From IMG/VR virus record IMGVR_UViG_3300029787_000002, positions 108,908-172,907 of that record: a DNA stretch of 64,000 nucleotides. The stretch is one strand, 5' to 3'. The notes under the pieces are model-generated. The model was not told the DNA's origin, ran no database searches, and worked only from the letters and a program-made list of their open reading frames with translations. Below, in pieces: positions 21,860 through 37,666 of this stretch. The position numbers were made by a program, and so were the translations under genes. Position 1 is the first letter of the stretch, and each line of letters opens with the position of its first letter. This DNA is from a virus.

Positions 21860-21867
21860 ACAAAATG

Positions 21868-21875
21868 TATAAATA
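21868..21875 (+). promoter_or_regulatory. T4-type late promoter
   Basis: Exact TATAAATA, intergenic. Confidence 0.85.
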
Positions 21876-21903
21876 AGACTGTAAGTCTTATTGAGTAGGT
21901 TAG

Positions 21904-23893: not shown

Positions 23894-24074
23894 TTCTATG
23901 TTTGATATAGACGAGAAGAGTCTATTAAAAGAGTCTCTCGTTAAATACGTTTCGTATTTACAAAAAAGATTCTTCAAAGATAAGAATATCTCGGAAGAAG
24001 ATTATCATCAACAAATGAATCATATTGAATCAATTGTTGGAAAACTACATCTAAATGATCTCTATAAATTATGA
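23874..24074 (+). CDS. Hypothetical protein
   Basis: ORF track, GAGGA RBS. Confidence 0.65.
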   Translation: MSYLYHSSMFDIDEKSLLKESLVKYVSYLQKRFFKDKNISEEDYHQQMNHIESIVGKLHLNDLYKL

Positions 24075-24697
24075 GTATTGAAATGTTCTGCCCTCAGTGG
24101 TATTACGTTGAGAGCGTACCTGTTGAGTATCAGGCACAAATTGAAAAATTATTTGAACCGCAGATCAGAGACGAGAGTCTATATGTGCAATCCCCTTGGG
24201 ATTGTAACTGTTTATCTACATTTCAATCTAAAAGTAATTTAGATCTACCTTGGAATGACTGGTTAGAATGTTGTAGGTCAACACTTGACAAGATGATTGA
24301 CGCATTGCAACCTAAAATTGATATCGAAGTAGTACCTCAGGAAGCATGGGCAAATCTATATACTAAAGGTATGCATCAAGAGTACCATACACATAGTTTA
24401 CCAAACTGTAATCTAAGCATGTGTTACTTGTATGATGTACCCGAAGGTGACCCATTGTTTCGGTTCGTTTATAATGGACATGATGACTATAAAAGGTCAG
24501 GTCTAACCGAAGCATTCGATATGCCCATACAAACGAGAATCGTCCCTAAGGCAACTAAAGGAGACCTTATTATATTTCCCTCGCATTATCCTCACTTCGT
24601 TGCTCCTAACCCCTCTGATGCCCCTCGCATCACATTCTCAGGGAACCTGTACGTTGTGCCAAACAACAAAGCGTCACAGGACACTCCCACACCATAA
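24071..24697 (+). CDS. Putative 2OG-Fe(II) oxygenase (TIGR02466-like)
   Basis: WANLY..G.HQEYHTH, GDLIIFPS..PHFV.P, RITFSGN. Confidence 0.85.
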   Translation: MSIEMFCPQWYYVESVPVEYQAQIEKLFEPQIRDESLYVQSPWDCNCLSTFQSKSNLDLPWNDWLECCRSTLDKMIDALQPKIDIEVVPQEAWANLYTKGMHQEYHTHSLPNCNLSMCYLYDVPEGDPLFRFVYNGHDDYKRSGLTEAFDMPIQTRIVPKATKGDLIIFPSHYPHFVAPNPSDAPRITFSGNLYVVPNNKASQDTPTP

Positions 24698-24712
24698 AAT
24701 TCATGCTATGAT
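24656..24712 (+). promoter_or_regulatory. Early promoter module copy 1 (palindrome plus -10)
   Basis: GTGCC-AAACAACAAAGC-GTCAC (24656-24677), 29 nt, TATGAT preceded by TGC. Confidence 0.7.
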
Positions 24713-24908
24713 TACTCCTGTAAACAAACCTCAGACTTCTATCGGCATCATTAAGTCGATCAAGAAGGCACTCAAAGAGGCAGACAATGACCCCTTTCTT
24801 TATTCAATCGATGAAATCAAAACTCTCAAACGCAAAAAGCGTGAATGGCAAGACCTTGAACGCAGGGCGAACATCGAAGAACGCAATGGGTTCGGTCAGT
24901 ACCTATAA
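24708..24908 (+). CDS. Hypothetical protein (start uncertain)
   Basis: IKSIKKALKEADNDPFLYSIDEI..LKRK...NGFG. Confidence 0.6.
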   Translation: MITPVNKPQTSIGIIKSIKKALKEADNDPFLYSIDEIKTLKRKKREWQDLERRANIEERNGFGQYL

Positions 24909-25026
24909 ACTGGACAATGTAAACATCGAGTACAATAGTTCATTCGATTGTGTTCAAGAGAACGAGGATGATTGGGTATCTAGTTTCCTCGGTTCTGAAT
25001 ATGATGTAGTCAATTCACTTTATTAA
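24886..25026 (+). CDS. Small acidic protein
   Basis: ...ENEDDWVSSFLGSEYDVVNSLY; start reassigned. Confidence 0.5.
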   Translation: MGSVSTYKLDNVNIEYNSSFDCVQENEDDWVSSFLGSEYDVVNSLY

Positions 25027-25028
25027 AT

Positions 25029-25202
25029 ATGTCAGAGTCAACTTCCTATCATATCTACTACGATGATAAAGTTCTATTCAAGAACTTGAGTCTAGAAGAG
25101 TTCACATTGATCTGGAAGAAACTCTATCGGTCATACCATACTGATAGTATTACTTACTCAATTTGTAAGGATGACTTATGTACCTTAGAACAGAGTTATT
25201 AA
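25029..25202 (+). CDS. Hypothetical protein (57 aa, not in track)
   Basis: MSESTSYHIYYDDKVLFKNLSLEEF...EQSY. Confidence 0.7.
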   Translation: MSESTSYHIYYDDKVLFKNLSLEEFTLIWKKLYRSYHTDSITYSICKDDLCTLEQSY

Positions 25203-25391
25203 ATGAGAGTCAGACTGGAACCTCGAACAGGTAATCGAGAAGCACAAGAAATGTTCAGGTATCATTTACATCGTGATGGTTATGTTCATGTGAGCGAACG
25301 TCTCGATAGATGGTATGTTTTTCACCCAAATTCCAATACAGGTTTTTGGGTACACCCAACAAAAGACCCTAATTGGATTGTACACAAATGA
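25203..25391 (+). CDS. Hypothetical protein
   Basis: FWVHPTKDPNWIV C-terminus. Confidence 0.7.
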   Translation: MRVRLEPRTGNREAQEMFRYHLHRDGYVHVSERLDRWYVFHPNSNTGFWVHPTKDPNWIVHK

Positions 25392-25549
25392 ATCCCTACA
25401 AAGTCATCTACTGGAAGGACGGTTCACTTGATCGCAAAGAGATCATCACCTTTGGTGAAGAGTCCACCGCTAACTTGATGGACTTGTTTGAAGAGAACAT
25501 TAATTATGATGTACATTGTGTGAAATCCCAGACATTACTGACTAAATAG
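25388..25549 (+). CDS. Hypothetical protein (53 aa, not in track)
   Basis: ATGA coupling; MNPYKVIYWKDG... Confidence 0.6.
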   Translation: MNPYKVIYWKDGSLDRKEIITFGEESTANLMDLFEENINYDVHCVKSQTLLTK

Positions 25550-25621
25550 TATCAGTCAGGAGAACAAGATGATCTAAAACTCCATGATATTATGGAAATC
25601 AAATTCAACAAGTGAGGTTCA

Positions 25622-25789
25622 ATGCACAACATCTTTACACAGAAACAAACTCCAGAGTTTACAAACTTTAACGCTGAAACATACGAAAACGAGTTATGGA
25701 ATGACTACTTTGAATGTTTAGTCGATTCTGAAAACTTAAGACACAACCAATCAGCAAAGAAAATCTGTAGATATCTAGTTCCAGAATAG
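25622..25789 (+). CDS. Small protein with DYFECL...KKICR motif (55 aa, not in track)
   Basis: GAGG RBS; MHN...NDYFECLVDS...KKICRYL. Confidence 0.7.
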   Translation: MHNIFTQKQTPEFTNFNAETYENELWNDYFECLVDSENLRHNQSAKKICRYLVPE

Positions 25790-25844
25790 GACACTCTACA
25801 TACTGTCACAAACCCCCACACAGGGGGTTTTTTTGTGCTATACT
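25788..25844 (+). promoter_or_regulatory. Early promoter module copy 2 (palindrome in inverted orientation, hairpin, -10)
   Basis: AGGAC-ACTCTACATACT-GTCAC (25788-25809), AAACCCCC-ACACA-GGGGGTTT hairpin, TATACT at 25839. Confidence 0.75.
25810..25834 (+). terminator. Intrinsic terminator-like hairpin inside the promoter module
   Basis: AAACCCCC/GGGGGTTT stem followed by T-run. Confidence 0.6.
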
Positions 25845-25865
25845 AAGGGTACTGACGAACGAAGT

Positions 25866-27095
25866 ATGAATTTGAGACCCCATCAGCAAAGAGCATTCGA
25901 TAGGATGCAGCAGTATGATATCGGTAAGATCATCGTACCTACTGGTGGCGGTAAGACTTATATTATGATCGCTGACTTGATCGAGCAGATGCAGCAGAGA
26001 TATGACACTACAACTGTAGTTGTTGCACCTCGTATCCTATTGGCAAACCAATTGTGTGCAGAGTTCACAGAGTTTGTAAGCGATGCTGATATTATGCACG
26101 TCCACTCAGGTGAGACTCACTATACATCTAGCACTAAACCTGAAGATGTCAAACTATTTGTAAGCACACATACTAAGCATAAGATCATCTTTACTACATA
26201 TCATTCATTACATCGTGTAGTTGATTCAGATATCACTATTGATACTGTATACTATGATGAAGCACACAATGGAACAGGCAAAAAGTTCTTTGAAGGTGTG
26301 AATGGTATGGTTCACAATGCTACTCGTAGGTTCGCATTCACCGCAACACCTCGCATGGGACGTGGTGTCTCAGCAAATCGTGGCATGAACAACTCACAAG
26401 TGTGGGGACAGACTCTAGAGAACGTACCCGCAACTGAATTGATCGAAGCAGGTGCTATTCTTCCACCTCAGATCGTACCTTTTGAGACTGATAGAGTCAG
26501 AGAAAAGCATAACGCACATGATGTTGACGCTGAGAACCTCAAGGACATTCTAAGTTCACTTGATAGTCAGCAGTCAGCAAAAGTATTAGTGGCAGCACCT
26601 AGTTCAAGGATCCTTGGGTTCATGTTGGGTAGAACTGACATCCTAGAGTATCTCAAAGAGAATGGATATGATGTACTACACATCACATCTAAGTTCGGTG
26701 CTATCATCAATGGCAAGAAAGTAGGACGTGAAGAGTTCTTCAATACTCTTACAGAGTGGGGCAACGATGACAATCGTAGGTTCGTTGTTTTCCACTATTC
26801 TATCCTATCTGAAGGAATCAACGTCAATGGTCTCACTCATACTGTATTGTTGAGGAATCTACCTATCATCGAAATGGCACAAACTATCGGACGTGTTATC
26901 AGAGTGCATAAGGATGACCGCAAAGCAGTTGAATCTGGTAGTATACCCTCTGGTGCATTCCACCTCTACAAGAAGGGTGCAGGTTATGTAACTGTACCAA
27001 CTGGATTTAAGTATGGTGATCGCATTGCAAAGAGACTTCAGAGCGTGGTAGAGTACATTTTTGTGGAAGGCATCCCACCTCTTTCATATTGCTGA
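25866..27095 (+). CDS. SF2 (DEAH, type III Res-like) helicase
   Basis: LRPHQQ, PTGGGKT, DEAH, FTATP, LSEGINV, QTIGRVIR. Confidence 0.9.
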   Translation: MNLRPHQQRAFDRMQQYDIGKIIVPTGGGKTYIMIADLIEQMQQRYDTTTVVVAPRILLANQLCAEFTEFVSDADIMHVHSGETHYTSSTKPEDVKLFVSTHTKHKIIFTTYHSLHRVVDSDITIDTVYYDEAHNGTGKKFFEGVNGMVHNATRRFAFTATPRMGRGVSANRGMNNSQVWGQTLENVPATELIEAGAILPPQIVPFETDRVREKHNAHDVDAENLKDILSSLDSQQSAKVLVAAPSSRILGFMLGRTDILEYLKENGYDVLHITSKFGAIINGKKVGREEFFNTLTEWGNDDNRRFVVFHYSILSEGINVNGLTHTVLLRNLPIIEMAQTIGRVIRVHKDDRKAVESGSIPSGAFHLYKKGAGYVTVPTGFKYGDRIAKRLQSVVEYIFVEGIPPLSYC

Positions 27096-27098
27096 TGT

Positions 27099-27156
27099 GT
27101 GACAGTTGACAAAGTGTCACAACATCCCACACAACACCCCAAATCTTTGTTATATT
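27099..27156 (+). promoter_or_regulatory. Early promoter module copy 3
   Basis: GTGAC-AGTTGACAAAGT-GTCAC (27099-27120), 30 nt, TATATT preceded by TGT. Confidence 0.8.
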
Positions 27157-27162
27157 AATAAT

Positions 27163-27317
27163 GTCGAAACAAACCAACCTAAGACTTTCAAGGTTGCGGA
27201 CACCAGAGGTCTAATGGATTTAATCCTGATCAACGAAGGTTAATTTATTAATCTGTCTTGGCGATTCCTTTGCATACGCATTTAAATCGAACTTAAGCAG
27301 TTGAGTTTTGTTTCGAC
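27163..27317 (+). ncRNA. Candidate structured non-coding RNA (about 155 nt)
   Basis: Starts at the predicted TSS; perfect 11-bp closing stem GTCGAAACAAA/TTTGTTTCGAC; only a 17-codon ORF from ATG 27161. Confidence 0.55.
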
Positions 27318-27338
27318 CCATCATAATCACAGGTCACT

Positions 27339-27536
27339 ATGGTCACACTACAACTGACAAAAGATCAATTTTTTGAACTGTATGATGCAGTCAAAGATCT
27401 ACCAGACATCTACAAATCCGAAGCACTTGCGGGTGAGTATGAATTGGATGCAGCACACTATGATCTTTTTGATGCAGTCAAAGTAATGGATAAAATTGCT
27501 CTTAATCCATCGGTCGAAATCTTTCTAGGAAAATAA
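27339..27536 (+). CDS. Hypothetical early protein
   Basis: ORF track. Confidence 0.7.
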   Translation: MVTLQLTKDQFFELYDAVKDLPDIYKSEALAGEYELDAAHYDLFDAVKVMDKIALNPSVEIFLGK

Positions 27537-27578
27537 CCCTATGTCTAATAAATATTACAACAGTCAGGGTTTACTACG

Positions 27579-27806
27579 ATGAGTAAGATCAAAGATGTCA
27601 CCAACTCACCAGAAGACTGGGAGGATTTTTGGTACAATTCAGAGGATGGATTTTACTTTGATTCTGTTACTGGTTTATCCTACCAGATCGAAGGATGGGA
27701 TGGGCAAGAGGACAGTGCATCAGAGTATCAAAAAAAGATCTATCTGGAATCTACCATCGCTGAATTGGAAAGTCAAGCAGATGACCCCATGGGAATCGGC
27801 AAGTGA
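27579..27806 (+). CDS. Acidic Trp-rich small protein
   Basis: DVTNSPEDWEDFW; AATAAATA late box at 27547-27554. Confidence 0.7.
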   Translation: MSKIKDVTNSPEDWEDFWYNSEDGFYFDSVTGLSYQIEGWDGQEDSASEYQKKIYLESTIAELESQADDPMGIGK

Positions 27807-27807
27807 T

Positions 27808-27865
27808 GTGACAGTTGGCAAAGTGACCACTAAACCCCCACAGAGGGGTTTTTCTATGGCATACT
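27808..27865 (+). promoter_or_regulatory. Early promoter module copy 4
   Basis: GTGAC-AGTTGGCAAAGT-GACCAC (27808-27830), AAACCCC/GGGGTTT hairpin, CATACT at 27860. Confidence 0.75.
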
Positions 27866-27890
27866 AGTAATAGTTAAACAAACAACACAC

Positions 27891-28094
27891 ATGGACATCG
27901 CTCTCGAACGTGAATATGCTATCGACAACATGGCAGACTCACTCTTCGATCAAATGAAAGATTTGATCAAGCAAGATCAGCATAATGATGCTATTGCAGT
28001 TTGTGAAGAGTGGTTGGTAGATGGCAAAGACCCTCAGGATGGCGATTATAAGTTTATCTTCCTTAAGAACTTCACACTAAACGAGGACAACTAA
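27891..28094 (+). CDS. Hypothetical early protein
   Basis: ORF after AC-rich leader. Confidence 0.75.
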   Translation: MDIALEREYAIDNMADSLFDQMKDLIKQDQHNDAIAVCEEWLVDGKDPQDGDYKFIFLKNFTLNEDN

Positions 28095-28095
28095 A

Positions 28096-28341
28096 ATGAA
28101 ACAATCCGAAAAGGACTTCCAAAACTGGATCGAATCATGTCCCGACCTACTCAGGTTTAGACTTGAGTATGTTGACGTGAGAGCAGATGTTGAAAACGTC
28201 ATCACAACTTACGAATACGAATTTGCGGATGACGAGACTAGAAAAGAGGTGACTGAAGCAGTCATCGAAGATTTCTATGATCAAGATTGGTCAGACCATA
28301 ACGAATTCATTGCACACCTATTAGACAGGAGACTCTCATGA
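28096..28341 (+). CDS. Hypothetical acidic early protein
   Basis: GAGGA RBS; FQNWIESCP. Confidence 0.75.
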   Translation: MKQSEKDFQNWIESCPDLLRFRLEYVDVRADVENVITTYEYEFADDETRKEVTEAVIEDFYDQDWSDHNEFIAHLLDRRLS

Positions 28342-28568
28342 AAACTATCGATGTTCCTTTTACCTATGATCAATTAAGTGACGTGATTTACTATCTTGAG
28401 TGGAAGATCTCAGAGATCAACGAAGCAGGATGTGATCTCGAATTTCCAGAGATAGAGAACACCTTACAACAGTTACAGGAGACTCAGGACAGACTCAGAG
28501 TGAGAACTGACGAAGATTATCAACTCATGATGAACAATAGAGCAAAACAACCAACAGCAGAGTGGTAG
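28338..28568 (+). CDS. Hypothetical early protein
   Basis: GGAG RBS, ATGA coupling. Confidence 0.75.
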   Translation: MKTIDVPFTYDQLSDVIYYLEWKISEINEAGCDLEFPEIENTLQQLQETQDRLRVRTDEDYQLMMNNRAKQPTAEW

Positions 28569-28569
28569 T

Positions 28570-28627
28570 GTGCCAGTTCAATTAGTGTCACATGACCTAT
28601 TGTAATAGGTCTCTGATGCTTTATAAT
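28570..28627 (+). promoter_or_regulatory. Early promoter module copy 5
   Basis: GTGCC-AGTTCAATTAGT-GTCAC (28570-28591), GACCTAT/ATAGGTC hairpin, TATAAT at 28622. Confidence 0.85.
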
Positions 28628-28652
28628 ATTAGTATAGCAACGGAGATCACAC

Positions 28653-28958
28653 ATGCACAACTTCAAACAATTTCTTGACTATTGTGAATCATTCTACAGT
28701 CCAGAGCATCCTGACTGTTTATATCCTATCGATGGATTGACTAGGGGTGAGTTAGCACTTGCAATTCTCAACTATCTTGACTTATGTGCAGAGGATGAGA
28801 ATGTTAACTGGGGTGATGGTGATTCACTAGACAGAGAGAGAGTCAGAGATTTTGTTATTGAGCGTAGAGCAATTGATTACAACAGAATTCAGAAAATTTT
28901 AGCAATTGAAGATGCTAAGAACCCAGTAAGAGGTCTCAACTTCACAGGAGGACAGTAA
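28653..28958 (+). CDS. Conserved cyanophage early protein
   Basis: FLDYCESFY...LYPI...WGDGDSLDRERVRD. Confidence 0.8.
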   Translation: MHNFKQFLDYCESFYSPEHPDCLYPIDGLTRGELALAILNYLDLCAEDENVNWGDGDSLDRERVRDFVIERRAIDYNRIQKILAIEDAKNPVRGLNFTGGQ

Positions 28959-28959
28959 G

Positions 28960-29067
28960 ATGCAGAAAATTATCATCGAAGACATTACTGACTACAAAAA
29001 GTTACAGGAATGGATTGACAGTCTTGACCCTAGACTTAAAGAACAATACGAAAAGGAGGACAACTAA
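28960..29067 (+). CDS. Micro-protein (35 aa)
   Basis: GGAGG RBS; MQKIIIEDITDYKKLQEWIDSLDP. Confidence 0.55.
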   Translation: MQKIIIEDITDYKKLQEWIDSLDPRLKEQYEKEDN

Positions 29068-29068
29068 A

Positions 29069-29236
29069 ATGAATCAATTTAAAGTCGAATGTTCAGAGGT
29101 TAATTACTTCACAGTATTAGTTGAAGCAGAAACCGAAGAGGAAGCAAGGAAACTTGCTAACGCAAACATTAACTCATTTGAAGTCGAAGATGAGTATGTT
29201 TCAGAGTGGACTATTGAAAGTGTGGAGGAACTGTAA
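29069..29236 (+). CDS. DpnD/PcfM-like small acidic protein
   Basis: AAGGAGG RBS; FKVECSEVNYFTVLVEAETEEEARKLA. Confidence 0.65.
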   Translation: MNQFKVECSEVNYFTVLVEAETEEEARKLANANINSFEVEDEYVSEWTIESVEEL

Positions 29237-29523
29237 TGAGTTACGACAATTCAAAAGAGGTAACAATCAGGTTATCTAAAAGGGAACTCGGAATTCTCAA
29301 CATGTATACCTCTGGTTTATTTGCTCGCATCGATAGCGATGTAACAGAGTGGGGTAGTTCATGCACTGGTCATGATACAATCGAACATGACTATTTTGGT
29401 AAGGATGCAATTCTCGGATTAAGAAAAGAAGTCAAGAATGCAGTAGACTCATTCTATACTCATGAGAATGATCTAAGACTACCAAAAGATCACAACGGAA
29501 ATCCAAACCCTTGTGCCAGATGA
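29236..29523 (+). CDS. Hypothetical early protein
   Basis: GGAGG RBS; stop codon lies inside palindrome copy 6. Confidence 0.75.
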   Translation: MSYDNSKEVTIRLSKRELGILNMYTSGLFARIDSDVTEWGSSCTGHDTIEHDYFGKDAILGLRKEVKNAVDSFYTHENDLRLPKDHNGNPNPCAR

Positions 29524-29570
29524 TAAAGTGGCACAAAACCCCTCGCAATGGGGTGACCTCTTGCTATAAT
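29513..29570 (+). promoter_or_regulatory. Early promoter module copy 6
   Basis: GTGCC-AGATGATAAAGT-GGCAC (29513-29534), ACCCC/GGGGT hairpin, TATAAT at 29565. Confidence 0.85.
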
Positions 29571-29597
29571 AAAGACATGAACACACAAAGGAGAATT

Positions 29598-29795
29598 ATG
29601 GAAAAAGGTTTAAACATCGAAGTCACATCTTCACAGTATGAGTATCTCTATGAAGTACTCATGGAAGCATACTCAAACGATGTTGCAGAGCAAAAAGACT
29701 GGGATGTCCAGACTTTCGATAACTTACTTGACAATGTAATGAATGCGAAGTCAACTTACTTGTCAGATTCAACTCGTGGGATTCTAAAACGATAA
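29598..29795 (+). CDS. Hypothetical early protein
   Basis: AAGGAG RBS before ATG 29598. Confidence 0.75.
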   Translation: MEKGLNIEVTSSQYEYLYEVLMEAYSNDVAEQKDWDVQTFDNLLDNVMNAKSTYLSDSTRGILKR

Positions 29796-29864
29796 TTCTT
29801 ACATTCTTAATTCCAGTGGGTGACTACCTACACCCTATAAACATTTAATTTTATTCCTTTTATT

Positions 29865-30026
29865 ATGAGTCATTCAGTCAACACAGAAATCCTTGAAAAC
29901 CTTTACGATGAGATCTTAAATGAACTCAGTTTCAAGAATATCCAACTCGGTATTATGCTACCGATGCATAGACTTGAAGAGATCGCAGCAGATCACGCAC
30001 AAAAACGTTTTGAAGAGTTAGGTTAA
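29865..30026 (+). CDS. Hypothetical early protein (53 aa, not in track)
   Basis: MSHSVNTEILENLYDEI...AQKRFEELG. Confidence 0.7.
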   Translation: MSHSVNTEILENLYDEILNELSFKNIQLGIMLPMHRLEEIAADHAQKRFEELG

Positions 30027-30080
30027 CTCTTTAATAACGATTCTTCTAATTAAAACTTCACTTCAAACCTTTAATAAGAC

Positions 30081-30254
30081 ATGAACACAATTTTCGCAGC
30101 AATCACCGAGGGAGTTCCATTTTATGACTTCCCTAAAAGTCCAATTTTGGTGCTTGGGTTTTTTGGCATTCTCGTGGCAATGGTCACAGTATACACAGTT
30201 AATAAAGCATACTTCAATTCACCTTTTAACCCTGACAATCAAAAGAGATCATGA
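30081..30254 (+). CDS. Small membrane protein (57 aa, not in track)
   Basis: PILVLGFFGILVAMVTVYTVNKAYFNSPFN. Confidence 0.7.
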   Translation: MNTIFAAITEGVPFYDFPKSPILVLGFFGILVAMVTVYTVNKAYFNSPFNPDNQKRS

Positions 30255-30421
30255 TCACACAAAAGAAACCAACATTCGCTGAACTTGAGAAAAGATGGCG
30301 AGAGCATAATCATGAGTATAGCGAAGAGTTTACTCAAAACATCTACGATGCTCACATTGCAATTGCTGAACAGTTCCCATTCTTATATGACAGTTACGGA
30401 TTCCCAAAGGAGGACTACTAA
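30251..30421 (+). CDS. Hypothetical protein (56 aa, not in track)
   Basis: ATGA coupling; MITQKKPTFAELEKRW. Confidence 0.65.
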   Translation: MITQKKPTFAELEKRWREHNHEYSEEFTQNIYDAHIAIAEQFPFLYDSYGFPKEDY

Positions 30422-30562
30422 ATGAAATTTACAGAAGACCAAATTGAATACCTTAAAGAGTGTGTTTCATTCCATTATGAAATGAACTCTGACATCAAAG
30501 AACATATAATTGACATTAACGCACAATGCAGCAAAAAACTATGGGAGTGTGCCAGTGAATAA
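30422..30562 (+). CDS. Hypothetical protein (46 aa, not in track)
   Basis: AGGAGG RBS; stop inside palindrome copy 7. Confidence 0.65.
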   Translation: MKFTEDQIEYLKECVSFHYEMNSDIKEHIIDINAQCSKKLWECASE

Positions 30563-30607
30563 AGTGTCACAACATGGGTTTCTTTTAATCTCATTATTGT
30601 TTATAAT
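30549..30607 (+). promoter_or_regulatory. Early promoter module copy 7
   Basis: GTGCC-AGTGAATAAAGT-GTCAC (30549-30570), 31 nt, TATAAT at 30602. Confidence 0.85.
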
Positions 30608-30633
30608 AATAGTATAAACAAACAAAGAACATT

Positions 30634-30876
30634 ATGAACGCAACTTCAGTATACACAGAACCAGTAAACAGAATCAAGCAAAGAATTCTGTTTGATGACA
30701 ATCTACAGAATATGGCATGTTGCTGTTGTGACTGGGCAGAATTCGTTGTTGAGATCAACGAGTGGGGAATCGAGAGACTTGGAGGTGTCTGGTTCGATGA
30801 TCTTTCAGAATTCGATATACAGCACTTAGACATCTTCATTAAGGCAGAAAACGGTTACATCAGAGAGGAGGTTTAA
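30634..30876 (+). CDS. Hypothetical early protein
   Basis: ORF directly after promoter. Confidence 0.75.
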   Translation: MNATSVYTEPVNRIKQRILFDDNLQNMACCCCDWAEFVVEINEWGIERLGGVWFDDLSEFDIQHLDIFIKAENGYIREEV

Positions 30877-30879
30877 ATC

Positions 30880-31095
30880 ATGTGTAACAATCAACTTAAA
30901 AAGTGGGAAACAGGAACAGAGGGAGAAACATGGGATTTTGGTTATGTTGACAATCCCAAGCAATTTATCGAAGAGGTTTTTGAAATCGCATTTGGGGATG
31001 ATGCAATCAACCGTAACTATTCGATGGGCGAAGTTTTAGATAGACTCATGGAATTTAGTGATGATGCATTACGTTATAATGGAGAGTTAGACTAA
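30880..31095 (+). CDS. Conserved cyanophage early protein
   Basis: FIEEVFEIAFGDDAINRNYS..EVL..L.EFSDDAL. Confidence 0.8.
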   Translation: MCNNQLKKWETGTEGETWDFGYVDNPKQFIEEVFEIAFGDDAINRNYSMGEVLDRLMEFSDDALRYNGELD

Positions 31096-31253
31096 TGACT
31101 AATGTTCCAATCAGTTTTGACGAAGCATATCAGATGACGAGATTATACGATACTCTCAGAGATATGGATTTTGAACTTACTGACAATCAAGTGGCAGTAT
31201 TTGATAAATTACTTGATATTCGTAAATATGTCAAGTCAGAGGGTGCCAGTTAA
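31095..31253 (+). CDS. Hypothetical protein (52 aa, not in track)
   Basis: MTNVPISFDEAYQ..LYDTLRDMDFELT; stop inside palindrome copy 8. Confidence 0.7.
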   Translation: MTNVPISFDEAYQMTRLYDTLRDMDFELTDNQVAVFDKLLDIRKYVKSEGAS

Positions 31254-31300
31254 TTATGTGTCACACTCTACCTCGCATCGGTGGTTCAAACCGCTATAAT
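31243..31300 (+). promoter_or_regulatory. Early promoter module copy 8
   Basis: GTGCC-AGTTAATTATGT-GTCAC (31243-31264), 30 nt, TATAAT at 31295. Confidence 0.85.
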
Positions 31301-31307
31301 AAAGACA

Positions 31308-31362
31308 TGAACAGAGCGTTGCTCACTTTATCAATTGCTGAGGGATACCCTCGCTTTGTTCA
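31308..31362 (+). ncRNA. Candidate 5'-terminal structured RNA / leader
   Basis: 11-bp stem TGAACAGAGCG/CGCTTTGTTCA beginning at the predicted TSS; inner GAGGG-ATA-CCCTC. Confidence 0.45.
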
Positions 31363-31389
31363 AACAATTTTCACTTTACTTAAAATCAA

Positions 31390-31569
31390 ATGAGAATGAC
31401 TAAAGTTCAAGTAGTTTCACAATTTCGAGAAATGCTTCGTGAGTCAGGTGCAAACCTTAGGGGCGATTCAATTGCTAAACGTGAAGCATTTAACGATTAT
31501 GTTGACATGCTTAACAAAGATGGCGATGTAACCGACTGGCAAGCATACAACTGGAGCAACCCATTCTAA
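31390..31569 (+). CDS. Conserved cyanophage early protein (59 aa, not in track)
   Basis: MTKVQVVSQFRE...DSIAKREAFNDYVDMLNKDG.VT.WQ..NWSNPF. Confidence 0.8.
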   Translation: MRMTKVQVVSQFREMLRESGANLRGDSIAKREAFNDYVDMLNKDGDVTDWQAYNWSNPF

Positions 31570-31691
31570 TGACAATCACAGAATATAAAGAACTATGCAA
31601 ACAAAATAAATTGCATATCGGTGAGGAAGTCCCTGAAGACAATGACACCAAGAACAACGAAGACGAAACAAACACTTATCAAGGAGCATAA
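31569..31691 (+). CDS. Micro-protein (40 aa)
   Basis: TAATG coupling; MTITEYKELCKQNKL. Confidence 0.5.
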   Translation: MTITEYKELCKQNKLHIGEEVPEDNDTKNNEDETNTYQGA

Positions 31692-31695
31692 ACAC

Positions 31696-31902
31696 ATGAT
31701 CATCGAAAATTTCAGTAGAGAGCAATTTATTTTACTCTCAAAGGCACTTGATAATTATCGTATTTACATGACATCAGAAGAAGAAACTTTATCTGAAGAA
31801 ATTTTAGATAATGTCTTTTATCCATCTATTGGAATGAGTAAACCGAGAAATACCGCAAAGGTTACAAGTATAGCGGAAGCGATCCGCAAGGGACATAAGT
31901 AA
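31696..31902 (+). CDS. Hypothetical protein
   Basis: AAGGAG RBS before ATG 31696. Confidence 0.7.
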   Translation: MIIENFSREQFILLSKALDNYRIYMTSEEETLSEEILDNVFYPSIGMSKPRNTAKVTSIAEAIRKGHK

Positions 31903-31921
31903 CTATACTAACCTAAACAAA

Positions 31922-32134
31922 ATGAGTTGGAATCTTATCCCTTGGAGCGAACAAACAACGAACGTAATGGCAACAATGACCTATGAAGACTTAATCACTA
32001 AGTTACAACAATTGAACCCTAATCAGTTGAAGAAAAATGTTGCTATCTATGATGAACATTTAAATGAGAAGGTATTAGTTCACAATGAATTAATCTTCTT
32101 TGATAACAATCAGTTCCCCTATTTAAAGATTTAA
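31922..32134 (+). CDS. Hypothetical protein
   Basis: MTYEDLITKLQQLNPNQLKKNVAIYD. Confidence 0.7.
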   Translation: MSWNLIPWSEQTTNVMATMTYEDLITKLQQLNPNQLKKNVAIYDEHLNEKVLVHNELIFFDNNQFPYLKI

Positions 32135-32380
32135 ATGAACTTCCAAAAAGGTGACTATTACTCACTAAATGACTTAAATGGATGGGTTAATTTCATCGAT
32201 AGTAGTTATATCACTCTTGTTATAAATGAGTGGACTAAATGTGATGAATTAGCAAAAGGTAGTCGTAGTAATGTACATCAAGTGCAGTTACTAGTATACC
32301 CTCACCAATGGAAAGATATGGTGAAAAGTAATCGAAATCGCTTTGAAGATGGTCTACTAAATAACACTCATGAGAAGTAA
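32135..32380 (+). CDS. Hypothetical protein
   Basis: GWVNFIDSSYITL...LLVYPHQW. Confidence 0.75.
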   Translation: MNFQKGDYYSLNDLNGWVNFIDSSYITLVINEWTKCDELAKGSRSNVHQVQLLVYPHQWKDMVKSNRNRFEDGLLNNTHEK

Positions 32381-32507
32381 TCCGCAACCTATTCTTAATA
32401 GCGAGTTTAACACATTTTGGACTATATGTAAAGAACTCGTGGTAAGTACTTGGGAGTTGTATAGAACAACTGTAAGTAACAAAGTAACAAGAATAAGGGA
32501 AGATTAA
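32370..32507 (+). CDS. Small hypothetical protein (45 aa, not in track)
   Basis: ACTAAATA late-like box at 32356-32363; MRSNPQPILNSEFNTFWTICKEL. Confidence 0.5.
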   Translation: MRSNPQPILNSEFNTFWTICKELVVSTWELYRTTVSNKVTRIRED

Positions 32508-32579
32508 CGAATGTTGTTAAATATTAAAATAAATCTATTGTTGTTAACAATACCGAGATTAATTGCTCAGGTAATTGTA

Positions 32580-32608
32580 CTCTTAGCACGCAACTTACCG
32601 ATTGTCAA
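32580..32608 (-). promoter_or_regulatory. Possible leftward sigma70 promoter
   Basis: Minus strand TTGACA-17 nt-TAAGAG with extended TG; -10 is imperfect. Confidence 0.4.
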
Positions 32609-32633
32609 TGATAGTCAGCAAACACAGATTTTC

Positions 32634-32663
32634 TTGACAGATTATAAACAATTATGGTATAAT
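32634..32663 (+). promoter_or_regulatory. Sigma70 promoter
   Basis: TTGACA-18 nt-TATAAT with extended TG. Confidence 0.8.
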
Positions 32664-32699
32664 AACTCTGTAAGGGTTCAGAAATTCCTCTAAGTATCA

Positions 32700-32900
32700 A
32701 TGCTAAGTAACATCAAAGCACCTCAGAAGTACATGGAGTTGTTAACACTTTGGGAGGAAGGATTATGCCCACTAAATGAAGGTATTGCTTTGTTTCAGTT
32801 CTTGTTAGATACTGACCAATGTTGGGAGGATGAGATATTATCTAATACAGCAAGTTATATGGTTATGGAAGGATTTTGTTATTACGTTTACACCCCTTAA
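32700..32900 (+). CDS. Hypothetical protein
   Basis: LFQFLLDTDQCW. Confidence 0.7.
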   Translation: MLSNIKAPQKYMELLTLWEEGLCPLNEGIALFQFLLDTDQCWEDEILSNTASYMVMEGFCYYVYTP

Positions 32901-32909
32901 TTAACAACA

Positions 32910-33119
32910 ATGACCCAAAAGATGCTCTATAAAGTTTATAACAATGAATGTGAACTTATAGGGGAGTTTGTATCAATTTACGATATGGAACATTTTATGG
33001 ACGATGTTAGAAACTCACGGGGAGAGAGGTATAAAGAATTGCCCAGATTATCGGTATTTGATTATATTAAATCGATCGGTTACTATATGGAAATTAATTG
33101 CCCTGTGACAGTTAAATAA
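32910..33119 (+). CDS. Hypothetical protein
   Basis: Stop inside palindrome copy 9. Confidence 0.7.
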   Translation: MTQKMLYKVYNNECELIGEFVSIYDMEHFMDDVRNSRGERYKELPRLSVFDYIKSIGYYMEINCPVTVK

Positions 33120-33162
33120 GTGGCACAATAGGGGTTGTAAGGGGTTGCCCACCTGCTATAAT
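33105..33162 (+). promoter_or_regulatory. Early promoter module copy 9
   Basis: GTGAC-AGTTAAATAAGT-GGCAC (33105-33126), 30 nt, TATAAT at 33157. Confidence 0.85.
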
Positions 33163-33187
33163 TAATGTATACCAAACAAAGGGACAC

Positions 33188-33508
33188 ATGAGAAAAATTG
33201 AAAGACAAATGAACAACGCAATCAGAACAGGCAAAAACTTCTCATCATCCAATACAATGGTTAAGCAAGGATGGGAGGGAGAAGCAGATGTTTATTTACA
33301 TGGAAATCACATTGCAACTGTGAAGAACAATTCAATCGTCATTAAAGATGGGGGTTGGCAGTCTAATACAACGAAATCTAGACTTAATGCACTACTAGAC
33401 GAATTTTCTTATGGTATGAGAGTATTTCAGAAAAACTTTGAGTGGTTCGTATCTTATAAGAACGTTAAAGAGGATTTCGTAAGCGGTATGGAGTTAGCAA
33501 TCGACTAG
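33188..33508 (+). CDS. Conserved cyanophage early protein
   Basis: MRKIERQMNNAI...VYLHGNHIA...DGGWQSNTTKSRLNALL..VFQKNFEWFV. Confidence 0.85.
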   Translation: MRKIERQMNNAIRTGKNFSSSNTMVKQGWEGEADVYLHGNHIATVKNNSIVIKDGGWQSNTTKSRLNALLDEFSYGMRVFQKNFEWFVSYKNVKEDFVSGMELAID

Positions 33509-33537
33509 TTGACAGAATCACAGTTATAGAGTATAAT
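33509..33537 (+). promoter_or_regulatory. Consensus sigma70 promoter
   Basis: TTGACA-17 nt-TATAAT. Confidence 0.85.
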
Positions 33538-33565
33538 AGAGGGGTACAGACAACCCCTCTTTTTT
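33538..33565 (+). terminator. Rho-independent terminator
   Basis: AGAGGGGT-ACAGACA-ACCCCTCT followed by T-run. Confidence 0.8.
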
Positions 33566-33743
33566 ATTGTTTATGACTTAAGGCAGTAATCACAGTTACT
33601 AATTATTAAGAATGGCAGTTAAATTGCCCCCCTTAAATATAAAAAAGGGCCATAACCTAACCTACAAAGGTACCCCAGAGCAAGCAATATATTATTAAAG
33701 ATCTTAAATACTAGTAGATTCAAAAAATTTCCCAGAAAAATTT

Positions 33744-33947
33744 ATGCCTAATAGAGATTATCCCCAAGATCTACGAGTATGGTGTCTAGAAAGTTTGATT
33801 CAGATGGAAAGTCAACTCCACAGTGACATGTACCAGGTTGCAGACATGTACCTGGGTTCGTATACAACTAAAAACTCCGAAGCACTATATACACTATGGA
33901 TGGGGTGGAAACTAAAACACCCCACTAAGAATACGAACCCCCTGTAA
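33744..33947 (+). CDS. Hypothetical protein
   Basis: ORF track. Confidence 0.65.
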   Translation: MPNRDYPQDLRVWCLESLIQMESQLHSDMYQVADMYLGSYTTKNSEALYTLWMGWKLKHPTKNTNPL

Positions 33948-33952
33948 AATAA

Positions 33953-34117
33953 ATGTCACAAAGATTCTACACAACACTCGAAGAAGACGACTTTGGCGAT
34001 CTAATCCTTACGATACCTTACGAAGTGTGTGAAGAACTTGGATGGTCCGTCAATACAAAACTAGATTACACTATAGAGGAAGACTCCTTTACACTGAAGA
34101 AACACCCAGATGAATAA
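33953..34117 (+). CDS. AbrB/MazE/SpoVT-like DNA-binding protein (54 aa, not in track)
   Basis: GDLILTIPYEVCEELGWSVNTKLDYTIEEDSFTLKK fits the swapped-hairpin pattern. Confidence 0.75.
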   Translation: MSQRFYTTLEEDDFGDLILTIPYEVCEELGWSVNTKLDYTIEEDSFTLKKHPDE

Positions 34118-34343
34118 TGAACAAGAAGTAGCAGAAGCACTCAATGCTATCAACGATTGTCTAATTGCATTAGGTAAGCGTTTACAAGAAGTTGAGGAGT
34201 ATGTTGCTACAATGAATATTGCTGAGAAGGTGTTGTATAAACCAAACGGACAGGAAAAGTACTTAAATATAAAGGAAAACTACGATCTTATCTACCAGAG
34301 ATTAGATAAACTAGAGAAAGAAAGACCATGGGATGTAAAATAG
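34110..34343 (+). CDS. Hypothetical coiled-coil protein
   Basis: ORF track. Confidence 0.7.
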   Translation: MNNEQEVAEALNAINDCLIALGKRLQEVEEYVATMNIAEKVLYKPNGQEKYLNIKENYDLIYQRLDKLEKERPWDVK

Positions 34344-36919
34344 TCGATGGACGTGCAGGTCAGATCACTGATGTATGTCAGGATGCTGATGGTTGTCCAC
34401 GCTTTGAACCTTTACCTGCTGATAGAACGATCGGTATCAAGTATCGTGAATACCCAAAGAGTAGTATTCGTGGTAGTCTGAATAGTTTAAACAATGTCAA
34501 TGTGAATATCACTGGTGCTGAAGGACAAGCAGTGATGTATCCTTCCATTTTAGTCGGTAATCAAGGCGGTCGTGCTACATTTGGTGGCAATCCTGGAACA
34601 TTCTCACAACCTGTGTCTGCAGCAAACTGTGGTAAGGTAACAAGAGCAGGTACACTTTGTACTGGTTTCAGTAATGGTGCTACTGCAGTGTATGATTATT
34701 TCCCTACAGAACTCTCATTTAGTTTTCAGAACAGTGATACTTGGTTTTCTTACATCTACACGATGAATAGTAACTCAGGTCAGATTGGTATAGCATCTTA
34801 TATCATTGAGGATGAACAGCGGGGAACCACTGGAGGTACTTCGGATGGTACTCCAACGGGCGATCCACTAAGTGATAGTACCATTGCCAATACTATTTGT
34901 CACCCTTGTGCAGGATTTACCTGTACCCCCGCTTCCACACAGTGCTCATATACTATCGAAAGTGATGTAGATTACACTGGAGATGAAGATTGTCCCCACC
35001 CGACGCTGTTTGGCATTGGTACAGGAAGTTTTAAAGTGGTGTTTACCTATGATTCTCTATCCACTACGATTCCAAACGGTGTAACGGACCTCTCAGTGTC
35101 CTATGATGGCACGAATTACTCCGATGCATGGAACGAAGGTGAGAACTTTGGTATCTCATTTGACTCTCCACAGAATACTTGGCAAGCAGGAGATGAAGCA
35201 GCAGATACCTTTACCGTGTATACACTTGAAGCAACAGGTAAAACTGGTCTTCAACTGAATATTCGTATCGCACCGATCGTCGATGAGTCGGGATCCACTG
35301 TTGCATTCACAGGAACACGTTGGACTATCTTAGATATTGTTCAACCTGGCACAGGATATGCACAAAATGATACATTTAACATCACTCACGATCATATTCA
35401 CCCTGATAATACGACTACAACCTTTACATTAACTGTTAAAATCACTGCTGTTGGACCAATCGAGTCCCAATCTGGGTCAATTGCTGATGTTTTGCGTAGT
35501 GGTGATACATTAAATGGTCATGAAGTGACTCGTGTTCTTCATGGACCTTCAATTGATAGTGATTATAGTACATCAACAGGTCTCTTCCCTTACCATTTTG
35601 CTTATTTGGATGGAAATGGCAACGATTTTACTAAAGACACCTCTTATACAAGTAGTAGAGCACACCAAGTAACTGCAATTGCAGGTTACGGAATCAAAGA
35701 TGTAGGATTTTTCGGTGGACTTTATGAGTTTACGGATAAGTCTGTTCAATATACTACTGGTTTTGTTGACAGGAATGCTCCTGACGTCTATAATACCCTT
35801 GTTCAACCTTCATGTACCGTGAAATTAGACAACGGAAGAGTTGATCGTGTCGAGATTGACAACAACGGAGGAGGTTCTGGGTGGAATACACTCGGTAGAA
35901 TCCCTGAGTTGAGTATTACCGCACCAACTGTAGACTCTGGAGAGGCAGCGCAGGTCGTTGGTGACTTTGAAAACGGTGTTCTAGTCAATGTTACCGTCAC
36001 AAATCAAGGAAGCGGGTACGTTGAGAGCAATCTTCCACAAGTTTCCGTTACAAATATCCATAAATCAGAGAATTTTACAGTTGAAGACGCTGCTGTGCGC
36101 GAATTTGGGTTCGATAACCTCACTCAGTTCTATAAAACGTTCCCAGATGCAGTAGATGCGTTCCCAGAACTTGATCAAACAGCAATTCAGACAATTTTAT
36201 CGCAACATGAGACACTAAAAGCAAATGTTGAACCAGTAAAGGCGTATTCGAGGAACGAACCGAACGTAGAAATCAAAAAAGACCCCAATTATAAGCGTAG
36301 AGACGAGATGGTGCAGCGTCTTTTTAATAGACAGGACGTAGAAGGACTAAAAGTAACACTTAATCCCCCACAAACTTACAAAAGTATCGATACAGTTGAC
36401 TTTGGACCGTCTAAAGAAGCGCAAGACCTCAAAAAGTCTGCTAGAGAACTGATGGAAACACCTGCAATTGATAATGAGGTGCAAATTGAGAGTTTAATCC
36501 AAGAAGTGATCCCTGAAACTAGCATTTATGACGAATCTTACGTCGAAACTGTGCGTGGACCCTTTTCAGAACTGCCATATTCGTCTGACCTCACTAAATA
36601 CTTCATGAGACAGTTTATACCAGATGGAAGAGGAGAAGTAAAGGTTAAGCTTTCACTTGGCGTGACGCAACAGAACGTAGGAAATGCACATTTCTCTTGT
36701 ACCGCATCCGCAACTACAAGAGCAGACGCAACAGACGCTACTACTGGTGCGGTTACATCATCTACATTCTCATTTCCCTTTGGTCAAGTTCCTCAAGGAC
36801 CTGGTTGTCAGAATTGGAGTTGTAACGGAGACATGACTATCCGCAATGACTTTACCAATGCATCACAAACCATGGCAAAGGCAACAGAAAGATACGGTAA
36901 CCCTTATAACGTAACGTAA
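34328..36919 (+). CDS. Virion structural (baseplate/hub-associated) protein
   Basis: 863 aa, Cys-rich N-terminus, GxGY repeats, adjacent to PAAR and gp25. Confidence 0.7.
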   Translation: MGCKIVDGRAGQITDVCQDADGCPRFEPLPADRTIGIKYREYPKSSIRGSLNSLNNVNVNITGAEGQAVMYPSILVGNQGGRATFGGNPGTFSQPVSAANCGKVTRAGTLCTGFSNGATAVYDYFPTELSFSFQNSDTWFSYIYTMNSNSGQIGIASYIIEDEQRGTTGGTSDGTPTGDPLSDSTIANTICHPCAGFTCTPASTQCSYTIESDVDYTGDEDCPHPTLFGIGTGSFKVVFTYDSLSTTIPNGVTDLSVSYDGTNYSDAWNEGENFGISFDSPQNTWQAGDEAADTFTVYTLEATGKTGLQLNIRIAPIVDESGSTVAFTGTRWTILDIVQPGTGYAQNDTFNITHDHIHPDNTTTTFTLTVKITAVGPIESQSGSIADVLRSGDTLNGHEVTRVLHGPSIDSDYSTSTGLFPYHFAYLDGNGNDFTKDTSYTSSRAHQVTAIAGYGIKDVGFFGGLYEFTDKSVQYTTGFVDRNAPDVYNTLVQPSCTVKLDNGRVDRVEIDNNGGGSGWNTLGRIPELSITAPTVDSGEAAQVVGDFENGVLVNVTVTNQGSGYVESNLPQVSVTNIHKSENFTVEDAAVREFGFDNLTQFYKTFPDAVDAFPELDQTAIQTILSQHETLKANVEPVKAYSRNEPNVEIKKDPNYKRRDEMVQRLFNRQDVEGLKVTLNPPQTYKSIDTVDFGPSKEAQDLKKSARELMETPAIDNEVQIESLIQEVIPETSIYDESYVETVRGPFSELPYSSDLTKYFMRQFIPDGRGEVKVKLSLGVTQQNVGNAHFSCTASATTRADATDATTGAVTSSTFSFPFGQVPQGPGCQNWSCNGDMTIRNDFTNASQTMAKATERYGNPYNVT

Positions 36920-37464
36920 TGTCAGTACAAGCAGCAGCACTATTCATGGGAACATGTAGTGGACATGGTAAAGCAAATGGTGTCAACTGGCACCCAGGTC
37001 CAGGTGGAGGCATCTTATCTCCTTGCCCTCATCCATCTCTTGCACCTTATATTGTACCAAAGGGTATGGAGATTGCGGATAATTTTGCAACATGGTTACC
37101 TACAGCACAACTTCCGTTGGAACCTATTGTAAGAAACGTGGTAATTAATAAGAAGATCCCTATTATTGATCAGGATAACTTAATTCCACATCCTACAGTC
37201 ACACAGCATGTTACTATGTCAGTAGGATTCAAATGTTTCACGGTAAGAAATACTCCTGCGTGGCATTGTACTATTGGAACAGGCGGAGGTGGTCGAGAAG
37301 CAGCTACAGGTCATGCTCGAAGACTTTTTGCAACTACAAAGACAGTATTCATTAATGGAAAGCGTGCAGGTAGGATGGCAGATCCATTTGGAAATAAAAC
37401 AGTTCCATTTCCATGTTTGAGTGTCGTTGCAGGAGCAAGTAAAGACGTATTCATCGGAAGTTGA
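36919..37464 (+). CDS. PAAR-like spike-tip protein (gp5.4-like)
   Basis: CSGHG, NVVINKKIP, TVFINGKRAGRMADP, C...VAGASKDVFIG. Confidence 0.8.
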   Translation: MSVQAAALFMGTCSGHGKANGVNWHPGPGGGILSPCPHPSLAPYIVPKGMEIADNFATWLPTAQLPLEPIVRNVVINKKIPIIDQDNLIPHPTVTQHVTMSVGFKCFTVRNTPAWHCTIGTGGGGREAATGHARRLFATTKTVFINGKRAGRMADPFGNKTVPFPCLSVVAGASKDVFIGS

Positions 37465-37470
37465 TAAATA
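37463..37470 (+). promoter_or_regulatory. Late promoter (GATAAATA)
   Basis: NATAAATA upstream of the baseplate operon. Confidence 0.65.
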
Positions 37471-37501
37471 AAGTGGGATAGCAACCCCATTAAAAGTTCT
37501 A

Positions 37502-37666
37502 ATGTCGTATACATTACACTTTTTAATGATTAATCCCGATCGCGATCCAAAGTACATGTTAGAAACACATGGAACTGTAGGACTAGTCACAGATTACGGT
37601 TCGACTGCCTACATAGAGAAAGCAAAAACTAAAAAAGAAGTTAAAGCACCTAGCAAATGGCGTTAA
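37502..37666 (+). CDS. Small hypothetical protein (54 aa, not in track)
   Basis: ...MINPDRDPKYMLETHGTVGLVTDY; overlaps gp25 start. Confidence 0.55.
   Translation: MSYTLHFLMINPDRDPKYMLETHGTVGLVTDYGSTAYIEKAKTKKEVKAPSKWR

Follow-up and report, generated by a model that had tools for sequence, protein, structure and literature searches.

Upstream genes end at or inside a repeated palindrome that probably belongs to a promoter type of T4-like cyanophages

Modules, genes and stop codons at the locus

The virus genome studied here (IMG/VR record IMGVR_UViG_3300029787_000002; 172,907 bp, CheckV completeness estimate 99%) carries a repeated 24-bp palindrome, TGTGNCAGT-N6-AGTGNCACA, with a 9-6-9 layout, at or inside which upstream open reading frames (ORFs) end. 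We analysed bases 108908-172907 of the record, a stretch of 64,000 nucleotides (nt) that is called the window below and supplies all coordinates unless genome positions are named. Megablast matches of the window are to T4-like cyanophages only, with the P-RSM1 helicase as the top match (78%), and the product of gene 33188-33508 matches Pfam Kyano_Gp96 (E = 6.5e-44); on these two grounds the phage belongs to the Kyanoviridae (T4-like cyanophages). The genome also contains psbA. Searches of the cassette genes against Pfam and PHROGs returned only families of unknown function, except for a helicase, a 2-oxoglutarate (2OG) oxygenase and Gp96. Relatives used for comparison were loci of about 94% identity (L256/L259 for the upstream part, L257, which equals L263, and L262, which equals L266, for the downstream part), about 78% identity (L252/L254/L255/L271) and about 77% identity (L260, which equals L273, L258 and L261).

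Palindromes lie at 27098, 28569, 29512, 30548, 31242 and 33104, with degenerate copies at 24655, 25787 and 27807, and each opens a module on the + strand that ends in a -10 box. The first is a weak module (24655..24712) within the 3' end of the 2OG-Fe(II) oxygenase gene, in which a degenerate palindrome (24655-24678) is followed, after a 28-nt gap, by TGC-TATGAT (-10 box 24707-24712) ahead of gene 24787. The helicase gene (25866-27095) has its own module at 25787..25844, where the first three bases of the degenerate palindrome (25787-25810) are the TAG (25787-89) of a 55-amino-acid (aa) ORF, and a terminator hairpin (25810-25830) and the -10 box TATACT (25839-25844) follow. The post-helicase module (27098..27156) begins 2 nt after the helicase TGA (27093-95) and consists of a perfect palindrome (27098-27121), a 29-nt gap and TGT-TATATT (-10 box 27151-27156); it drives a structured, ORF-free stretch of about 155 nt and then gene 27339. 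The module at 27807..27865 has a palindrome (27807-27830) with a degenerate right arm (AGTGACCAC), a GC hairpin with a T run, and the -10 box CATACT (27860-27865) ahead of gene 27891, and it adjoins the upstream TGA (27804-27806). Likewise, the module at 28569..28627, ahead of gene 28653, adjoins the upstream TAG (28566-28568); its palindrome (28569-28592) is followed by the hairpin GACCTATTGTAATAGGTC and by TTGTAA-16-TATAAT, with the -10 box at 28622-28627.

In the four remaining modules the stop codon falls inside the palindrome. The palindrome at 29512-29535 (module 29512..29570) contains the TGA (29521-29523) of a 95-aa ORF and is followed by TGC-TATAAT (-10 box 29565-29570) ahead of gene 29598; that at 30548-30571 (module 30548..30607) contains the TAA (30560-30562) of a 46-aa ORF, with TATAAT at 30602-30607 ahead of gene 30634; and that at 31242-31265 (module 31242..31300) contains the TAA (31251-31253) of a 52-aa ORF, with TATAAT at 31295-31300. 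Modules 31242 and 29512 have the 21-nt stretch GCTATAATAAAGACATGAACA in common, and module 31242 is missing from lineages L270 and L273. The last palindrome (33104-33127; module 33104..33162) contains the TAA (33117-33119) of a 69-aa ORF and leads through TTGTAA-16-TGC-TATAAT (-10 box 33157-33162) into the Kyanoviridae Gp96 gene (33188-33508); an orthologous copy of this module was found in 43 other loci. Three further copies lie beyond the window at genome positions 44421, 46682 and 67640, and all 12 are on the gene strand. At the first of these, the module at genome 44421-44460, an extra copy of the right half-site (AGTGGCACA) stands 3 nt beyond the palindrome.

The repeat is well above background. 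The 22-mer pattern with up to two mismatches gave 19 strand-matches in the window against 4.6 expected, and with at most one mismatch the whole 172.9-kb genome gave 8 forward matches against 0 for the reversed control. Counted from the first base of the 24-mer, the upstream stop begins between -4 and +14 in 11 of the 12 genome copies and 8 of the 9 window copies; three window stops finish 0-2 nt ahead of the 24-mer, and the three copies beyond the window have the upstream stop at palindrome positions 1-3. The sole copy entirely within a gene is the weak one at 24655, where the stop lies 41 nt past the palindrome start. An earlier note on this DNA, which had placed stop codons inside, at or just before the palindrome, was therefore accurate in its coordinates, as it was in observing that the 6-nt spacers differ between copies.

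The overlap is not due to chance. Palindrome junctions typically leave 66-87 nt from stop to start, too little for the module itself (24 + 29 + 6 + ~7 + ~25 nt), so that an upstream ORF must overlap the module. The consensus site offers a stop in each frame, with the TGA of GTGAC and both TGA and TAA in the AT-rich spacer. The same habit is seen elsewhere; for example, gp074, gp077 and gp079 of P-TIM40 terminate on the TGA of GTGACAG in the GenBank annotation, and 54 of 109 scorable IMG/VR instances among the matches listed show the same overlap.

Promoter architecture and a candidate binding protein

The gap from the 24-mer to a TATAAT-type hexamer is 28-30 nt in every window copy (9/9), on the gene strand, and about 28-30 nt, as judged by eye, in the three copies outside the window. 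An extended TGN precedes the -10 box in 6/9 window copies, the start codon usually lies 21-27 nt past the box, and a generic sigma-70 scan found a -35 hexamer in only 2/9 modules. The exact 24-mer is present in at least 120 IMG/VR contigs. Among the matches listed, 86 of 120 loci have genes in common with this phage, and the only conserved downstream columns of 188 unique instances are TTG at +7 nt and TAtaaT at positions 54-59. With at most one mismatch, sites were found in Syn9 (2), P-TIM40 (6), P-SSM2 (9), S-PM2 (6) and P-RSM1 (6), against 0 in the control; they are clustered in all five genomes, and those of Syn9 and P-TIM40 lie upstream of clusters of small hypothetical genes. The palindrome is a fixed component of a family-wide promoter type, in which it spans about -65 to -42. 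The spacer is less uniform: a GC hairpin with a T run lies at 25810-25830 and another was seen by eye in module 27807; modules 28569 and 29512 have hairpins that lack the T run, and none is evident in 27098 or 30548.

Our favoured explanation, which we hold with good confidence, is that the palindrome acts as an upstream operator for host RNA polymerase promoters of a type common to T4-like cyanophages, and that the stop overlap reflects compaction. The module would then read, in order, as a 24-bp site at about -65 to -42, a variable spacer of 28-30 nt that sometimes holds the terminator hairpin of the upstream unit and mostly has no -35 box, a TATAAT-type -10 box and a leader of about 25 nt. 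Most likely, a two-fold symmetric DNA-binding protein already in the cell at injection would bind the site and recruit or stabilise RNA polymerase. As the module would fill the whole intergenic spacer, upstream ORFs would run into it until the first in-frame stop, which could come, in up to all three frames, from the GTGAC core and from TGA and TAA in the AT-rich spacer. With the module as the entire spacer, the stop-in-palindrome pattern amounts to genome compaction at transcription-unit boundaries.

A symmetric site of this strength, and the arrays of sites in one contig, could also suit a shut-off operator, at which an early or middle phage protein would repress these promoters later in infection, either alone or besides activation by a host factor. 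Phage operators provide the precedent. However, a site upstream of the core promoter occupies the position of an activator rather than a repressor, no GntR, MarR or XRE helix-turn-helix (HTH) domain was found encoded by the phage (small novel DNA binders being possible), and host yfr2 promoters, described below, carry the half-site at an identical position, which points to a host protein. We consider a shut-off operator unlikely.

The arms of the palindrome speak to whether it acts as DNA or as folded RNA. In the 188-instance set, arm positions 5 and 20 vary independently (CG 82, AG 46, CT 41, AT 11; odds ratio 0.48), complementary pairs there are rarer than independence predicts, and positions 8 and 17 form a conserved G/G clash that breaks the stem. 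Together with the arrays, these features fit the half-sites of a symmetric protein and not an RNA or cruciform stem. Stops inside the palindrome would also make sense if the 3' end of the upstream mRNA folded there into a hairpin that served as an RNA-level stabiliser, terminator or processing site; a 7-8-bp stem is possible, and where a terminator hairpin follows (25810-25830) the upstream transcript includes the site as its tail. Yet the sole variable stem pair does not covary, the G/G mismatch is conserved, separate GC hairpins with T runs would already act as terminators, the position is fixed to the downstream -10 box rather than to the upstream stop (-4 to +56), and the same half-site stands in host promoters that have no upstream ORF. 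An RNA role for the palindrome is accordingly highly improbable.

A candidate for the binding protein comes from the picocyanobacterial hosts. Cyano-1/Yfr2 genes (RF01701) were located in 45 picocyanobacterial genomes and 39 of their promoters were scored; G[AC]CAGT[TC] occurs 52-66 nt upstream of the RNA in 19/39 promoters from Prochlorococcus and Synechococcus, against a background of 0.004 per 15 nt. In the yfr2 promoters counted by hand, the gap from half-site to -10 box is 29-30 nt, equal to that in the phage, and the left phage half-site sits at the equivalent position. Several yfr2 promoters carry an everted pair, ACTGNCAC-(A)T-GTGNCAGTT, which agrees with the description of the element CGRE1 by Lambrecht et al. 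2018 (PMC6191309), namely 21-22 nt flanked by GTTG/GTTA 13-14 nt apart. The same study reports that PMM1637 (PlmA, GntR) binds CGRE1 of the yfr2 promoter in pull-down and electrophoretic mobility shift assays. Given that the phage encodes no such HTH domain and that the host half-site matches, a host factor is the economical reading, and the GntR-type regulator PlmA/PMM1637 is the best candidate binder of the palindrome, although its case falls a little short of an even prospect. A phage-like site, TATGACAAA-N6-AGTGTCACT, just upstream of plmA in two Prochlorococcus genomes hints at a link to PlmA and is suggestive only. Readings of the palindrome as an NtcA, CRP or sigma-54 site were dropped after inspection of the sequence, as half-site and spacing did not match. 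A CRP site is TGTGA-N6-TCACA and an NtcA site is GTA-N8-TAC.

Several observations stand beside this promoter type. In a low-GC, freshwater-type phage contig, L063 (IMGVR_UViG_3300031784_003461, reverse strand 6196-8835), two to six palindromes are arranged in tandem with a 57-58-bp period before each promoter, and similar arrays occur in L058 and L124; these tandem arrays are an enhancer-like or titration-like arrangement that is absent from the window. In S-PM2 (NC_006820, 2186-20676), 5/6 palindrome matches lie in or beside the 'ORFanage' region, which has been reported to be poor in promoter-early stem-loops (PeSLs; Puxty et al. 2015, PMC4503421). The window also holds a perfect TTGACA-18-TG-TATAAT promoter without a palindrome (32634-32663) ahead of gene 32700, and thus at least two promoter classes coexist in the region. 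Straight after the Gp96 stop, a perfect consensus sigma-70 promoter, TTGACA-17-TATAAT (33509-33537), leads directly into a strong terminator hairpin (33538-33560), so that its transcript would start inside the terminator. The ORF-free stretch after module 27098 (27163-27320, about 155 nt) is closed by an 11-bp stem (GTCGAAACAAA / TTTGTTTCGAC), both arms of which are kept in the 94% relative L257 while about 65 nt of the interior are missing. Rfam gave no match at E <= 0.1 on window 24000-38000, which places the stretch outside all curated families, and it may be an early non-coding RNA of the phage.

Gene-order breaks and the cassette question

The earlier note had interpreted the palindrome as the fusion point of units made of a promoter and one to six ORFs, shuffled by an integron-like or homology-driven system. 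The region is indeed built of units consisting of a palindrome, a promoter and ORFs, with a wider range of one to nine ORFs per unit, and the left edge of the palindrome is a unit boundary. A fixed fusion point is not what we observe. The orthologous Gp96 promoter palindrome is preceded by 28 different upstream ORF families, and one such family (window gene 32910) stops at +14, +26, +35 or +56 in different phages, from which we conclude that ORFs run into the promoter until they meet a stop. When the upstream gene changes, the palindrome is kept with the downstream gene in 102/285 cases (36%), and when the downstream gene changes it is kept with the upstream gene in 53/336 (16%), against a baseline of 8% of junctions. 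Linkage of the palindrome to the downstream gene is the behaviour expected of a promoter.

Close relatives allow recent events to be read individually, and the modules serve as syntenic landmarks in all relatives compared. The window differs from the 94% relatives by four events, three of which have no module at either end: the loss of gene 27339, the replacement of 28877-29235 by a zinc-ribbon-like gene and the replacement of 21501-21897. The fourth is module-flanked, with an extra 84-aa gene between two modules ahead of the helicase in L256/L259. Here the window module 25787-25844 is chimeric: its palindrome is that of the first L256/L259 module, and its hairpin, -10 box and leader are those of the second. 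Across relatives this junction (25786-25845), where the 55-aa ORF adjoins the helicase gene, holds three different module-flanked cassettes. In addition, L273 has an extra cassette of a 33-aa and a 95-aa ORF between two modules. A scripted test over 36 assessable gene junctions in three related lineages found breaks at 4/9 palindrome junctions against 17/27 others (Fisher p = 0.44) and in 9/27 against 27/80 lineage-junctions (Fisher p = 1.0). The expectation that breakpoints among relatives would map to the 22-mer is therefore not borne out; by that measure, their placement appears random.

Other local changes in gene content were seen. Slot 28877-29235 (compared with L257:2475-2780) is hypervariable, with the same two breakpoints in three lineages, and holds 35-aa and 55-aa ORFs in the window, a Cys-rich zinc-ribbon-like 92-aa gene in the 94% relative and other genes elsewhere. 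A homolog of window 31095-31253, the 52-aa gene that ends in palindrome 31242, is the first gene after the helicase module in L273 (4736-4853), and its position there is a single-gene translocation between units. Three first genes after modules (28653-28958, 29598-29795 and 33188-33508) are 79-83% identical to the 94% relative while their neighbours are 92-97% identical.

The wider sample added 80 loci that bear Gp96, for a total of 81 non-redundant gene orders. Adjacency conservation falls from 0.38 at tight junctions (<25 nt; n=522) to 0.22 at gaps of 25-59 nt (n=129), 0.168 at spacers of at least 60 nt without a palindrome (n=206) and 0.135 at palindrome junctions (n=98), and the last two classes differ with p = 0.04 per occurrence and 0.09 per adjacency type. 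Since long spacers are similarly unstable with or without a palindrome, gene order breaks at transcription-unit boundaries in general, and a specific instability at palindromes is not upheld. The palindrome adds little to the break rate, and selection for intact units explains the pattern as well as any mechanism.

These data bear on the possibility that the modules, besides acting as promoters, offer short homologies to the phage recombination machinery and are shuffled in the manner of PeSLs. The chimeric module and the two palindrome-flanked cassette polymorphisms, at the helicase junction and in L273, lend this weak support, as do the lowest adjacency conservation at palindrome junctions, the fact that three of the four genes most diverged from the 94% relative come first after a module, and the precedent of RB49/phi1, in which crossovers were mapped inside the modules and minicircles were shown (PMC2839356). 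Against it stand the lack of break enrichment in the lineage-junction test, the recent events without modules, and the near-equal instability of palindrome-free long spacers, which intact-unit selection explains equally well. The first-gene divergence is patchy within genes, neither beginning at the palindrome nor bounded by modules; gene conversion, or rapid evolution of the genes expressed first, may be its cause. Module pairs in the genome also match exactly over a median of 9 nt and a maximum of 21 nt, with a median in-register identity of 48%, and this within-genome similarity is a poor substrate for homologous recombination. Occasional exchange through microhomology or short homology at modules is real, as the chimeric module attests, without being the main way in which genes turn over here. 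Homology-driven shuffling at the modules is, in our assessment, doubtful, and would contribute little at most.

The integron-like alternative, in which an 8-6-8 palindrome would be the core site at which a tyrosine or serine recombinase takes up and releases gene cassettes, draws on that geometry and on the position of the palindrome at cassette boundaries. The earlier note had already recorded that the window has no integrase, and this holds for the whole 99%-complete genome, in which neither Phage_integrase (PF00589) nor Resolvase (PF00239) had a match at E <= 0.01 (controls were recovered in 14/14 and 12/14 genomes). Moreover, every window copy keeps a rigid 28-30-nt spacing to its -10 box, each unit has its own promoter whereas integron cassettes are promoterless, the arms show no hairpin covariation, the spacers differ and breakpoints are not focused on the site. 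We regard an integron-like system as having next to no probability.

Assessment and comparison with known systems

Taken together, the units behave as rearrangement units in the way that operons generally do, and the palindrome is not a dedicated recombination site. Several points weigh against an upstream operator served by a host activator. The pairing of half-sites in the phage differs from that in the reconstructed CGRE1, so that PlmA is no more than a putative binder of the phage arrangement. The exact phage palindrome was not found in five picocyanobacterial host genomes. Over the 81 loci no adjacency class is less conserved than palindrome junctions, and module 25787 is chimeric; the palindrome may thus have an added role in recombination. 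The 'early' timing is deduced from the architecture and from the element that Doron et al. 2016 reportedly described, the binding protein is a prediction, and both a host activator and its equation with PlmA are likewise presumed rather than observed. In host genomes the phage 22-mer has a single near-match, GTGACCGTGAGGAGAGTGCCAC, which the picocyanobacteria L210, L211 and L212 have in common.

On the operator reading, a stop codon inside the palindrome is a sign not of a recombinase site but of the left border of a promoter unit, in a genome packed as tightly as possible. A practical rule for annotating early regions of cyanophages follows: a palindrome, 29 nt and TATAAT signal the start of a unit, and upstream ORFs may end inside the palindrome. 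The results also support the testable idea that PlmA, a GntR regulator of the host, turns on the genes that abundant ocean viruses express first, which, if true, would link the onset of infection to the nutrient and energy state of the host, while the cassette analysis, with breaks at transcription-unit boundaries generally, tempers PeSL-style claims for cyanophages. A more speculative extension, which we offer tentatively and consider rather improbable as a whole, is that the first-expressed phage promoters could be strengthened, fully symmetric versions of the PlmA-controlled yfr2 promoters of the host, gating the start of infection through the PII-PipX nitrogen/carbon/energy network, and that the modules might also act as PeSL-like landing pads that move units of a promoter and ORFan genes between cyanophages.

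We regard the palindrome as the operator of a known promoter class of T4-like cyanophages. Doron et al. 2016 reportedly described an early-gene regulatory element of these phages in Syn9 and P-TIM40. The likeness lies in the virus family and in the presence of the site in both phages at a fixed spacing to the -10 box, and we infer that the two are the same element. A description of an early motif was not found in the citing papers searched, and Doron et al. 2016 may have left the stop-codon overlap and the cassette question aside.

Among elements that bound gene cassettes, integron attC/attI sites resemble the palindrome in being short imperfect palindromes at the edges of small gene cassettes, and differ in that here there is no integrase and no folded-strand covariation, each unit has a promoter and the spacing to it is rigid. 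PeSLs are known from RB49/phi1, T4/PST and KVP40/nt-1 (Arbiol et al. 2010, PMC2839356; Comeau et al. 2014, PMC4122927), and no description of them in cyanophages was found in the literature. Like the modules described here, they are composite promoter elements repeated between small ORFan genes in a plastic region of T4-like phages, and some cassette indels here are module-flanked and one module is chimeric. However, PeSLs have near-consensus -35/-10 sigma-70 promoters with an upstream stem-loop, whereas here the -10 box is good but the -35 box is mostly absent, the upstream element is a protein-type palindrome, and only some modules have a hairpin, placed between palindrome and -10 box. PeSL copies are also alike enough to recombine, while modules here have 9-21 nt in common and breakpoints among close relatives are not focused on them.

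Two further parallels concern activation. Class I activator sites, for instance those of the CRP family upstream of promoters with a weak -35 box, share with the palindrome two-fold symmetry, a place immediately upstream of the -35 region and a promoter reliant on an extended -10 box; the phage half-site and 9-6-9 spacing are unlike those of CRP or NtcA, and a centre near -53 is not the canonical CRP position. For CGRE1, whose layout was reconstructed from the text of the paper and from host loci, the partner half-site lies directly upstream and is everted, whereas the phage partner is strong and lies 6 nt downstream. Correspondingly, phage modules show no upstream partner half-site of the kind expected for an everted 21-22-nt repeat flanked by GTTG/GTTA, and host yfr2 promoters have only a weak downstream partner (AGCGNCC). 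In both, the half-site GTG[AC]CAGTT stands at an equal distance from the -10 box and the transcription start, and host yfr2 and phage promoters alike are without a clear -35 box.

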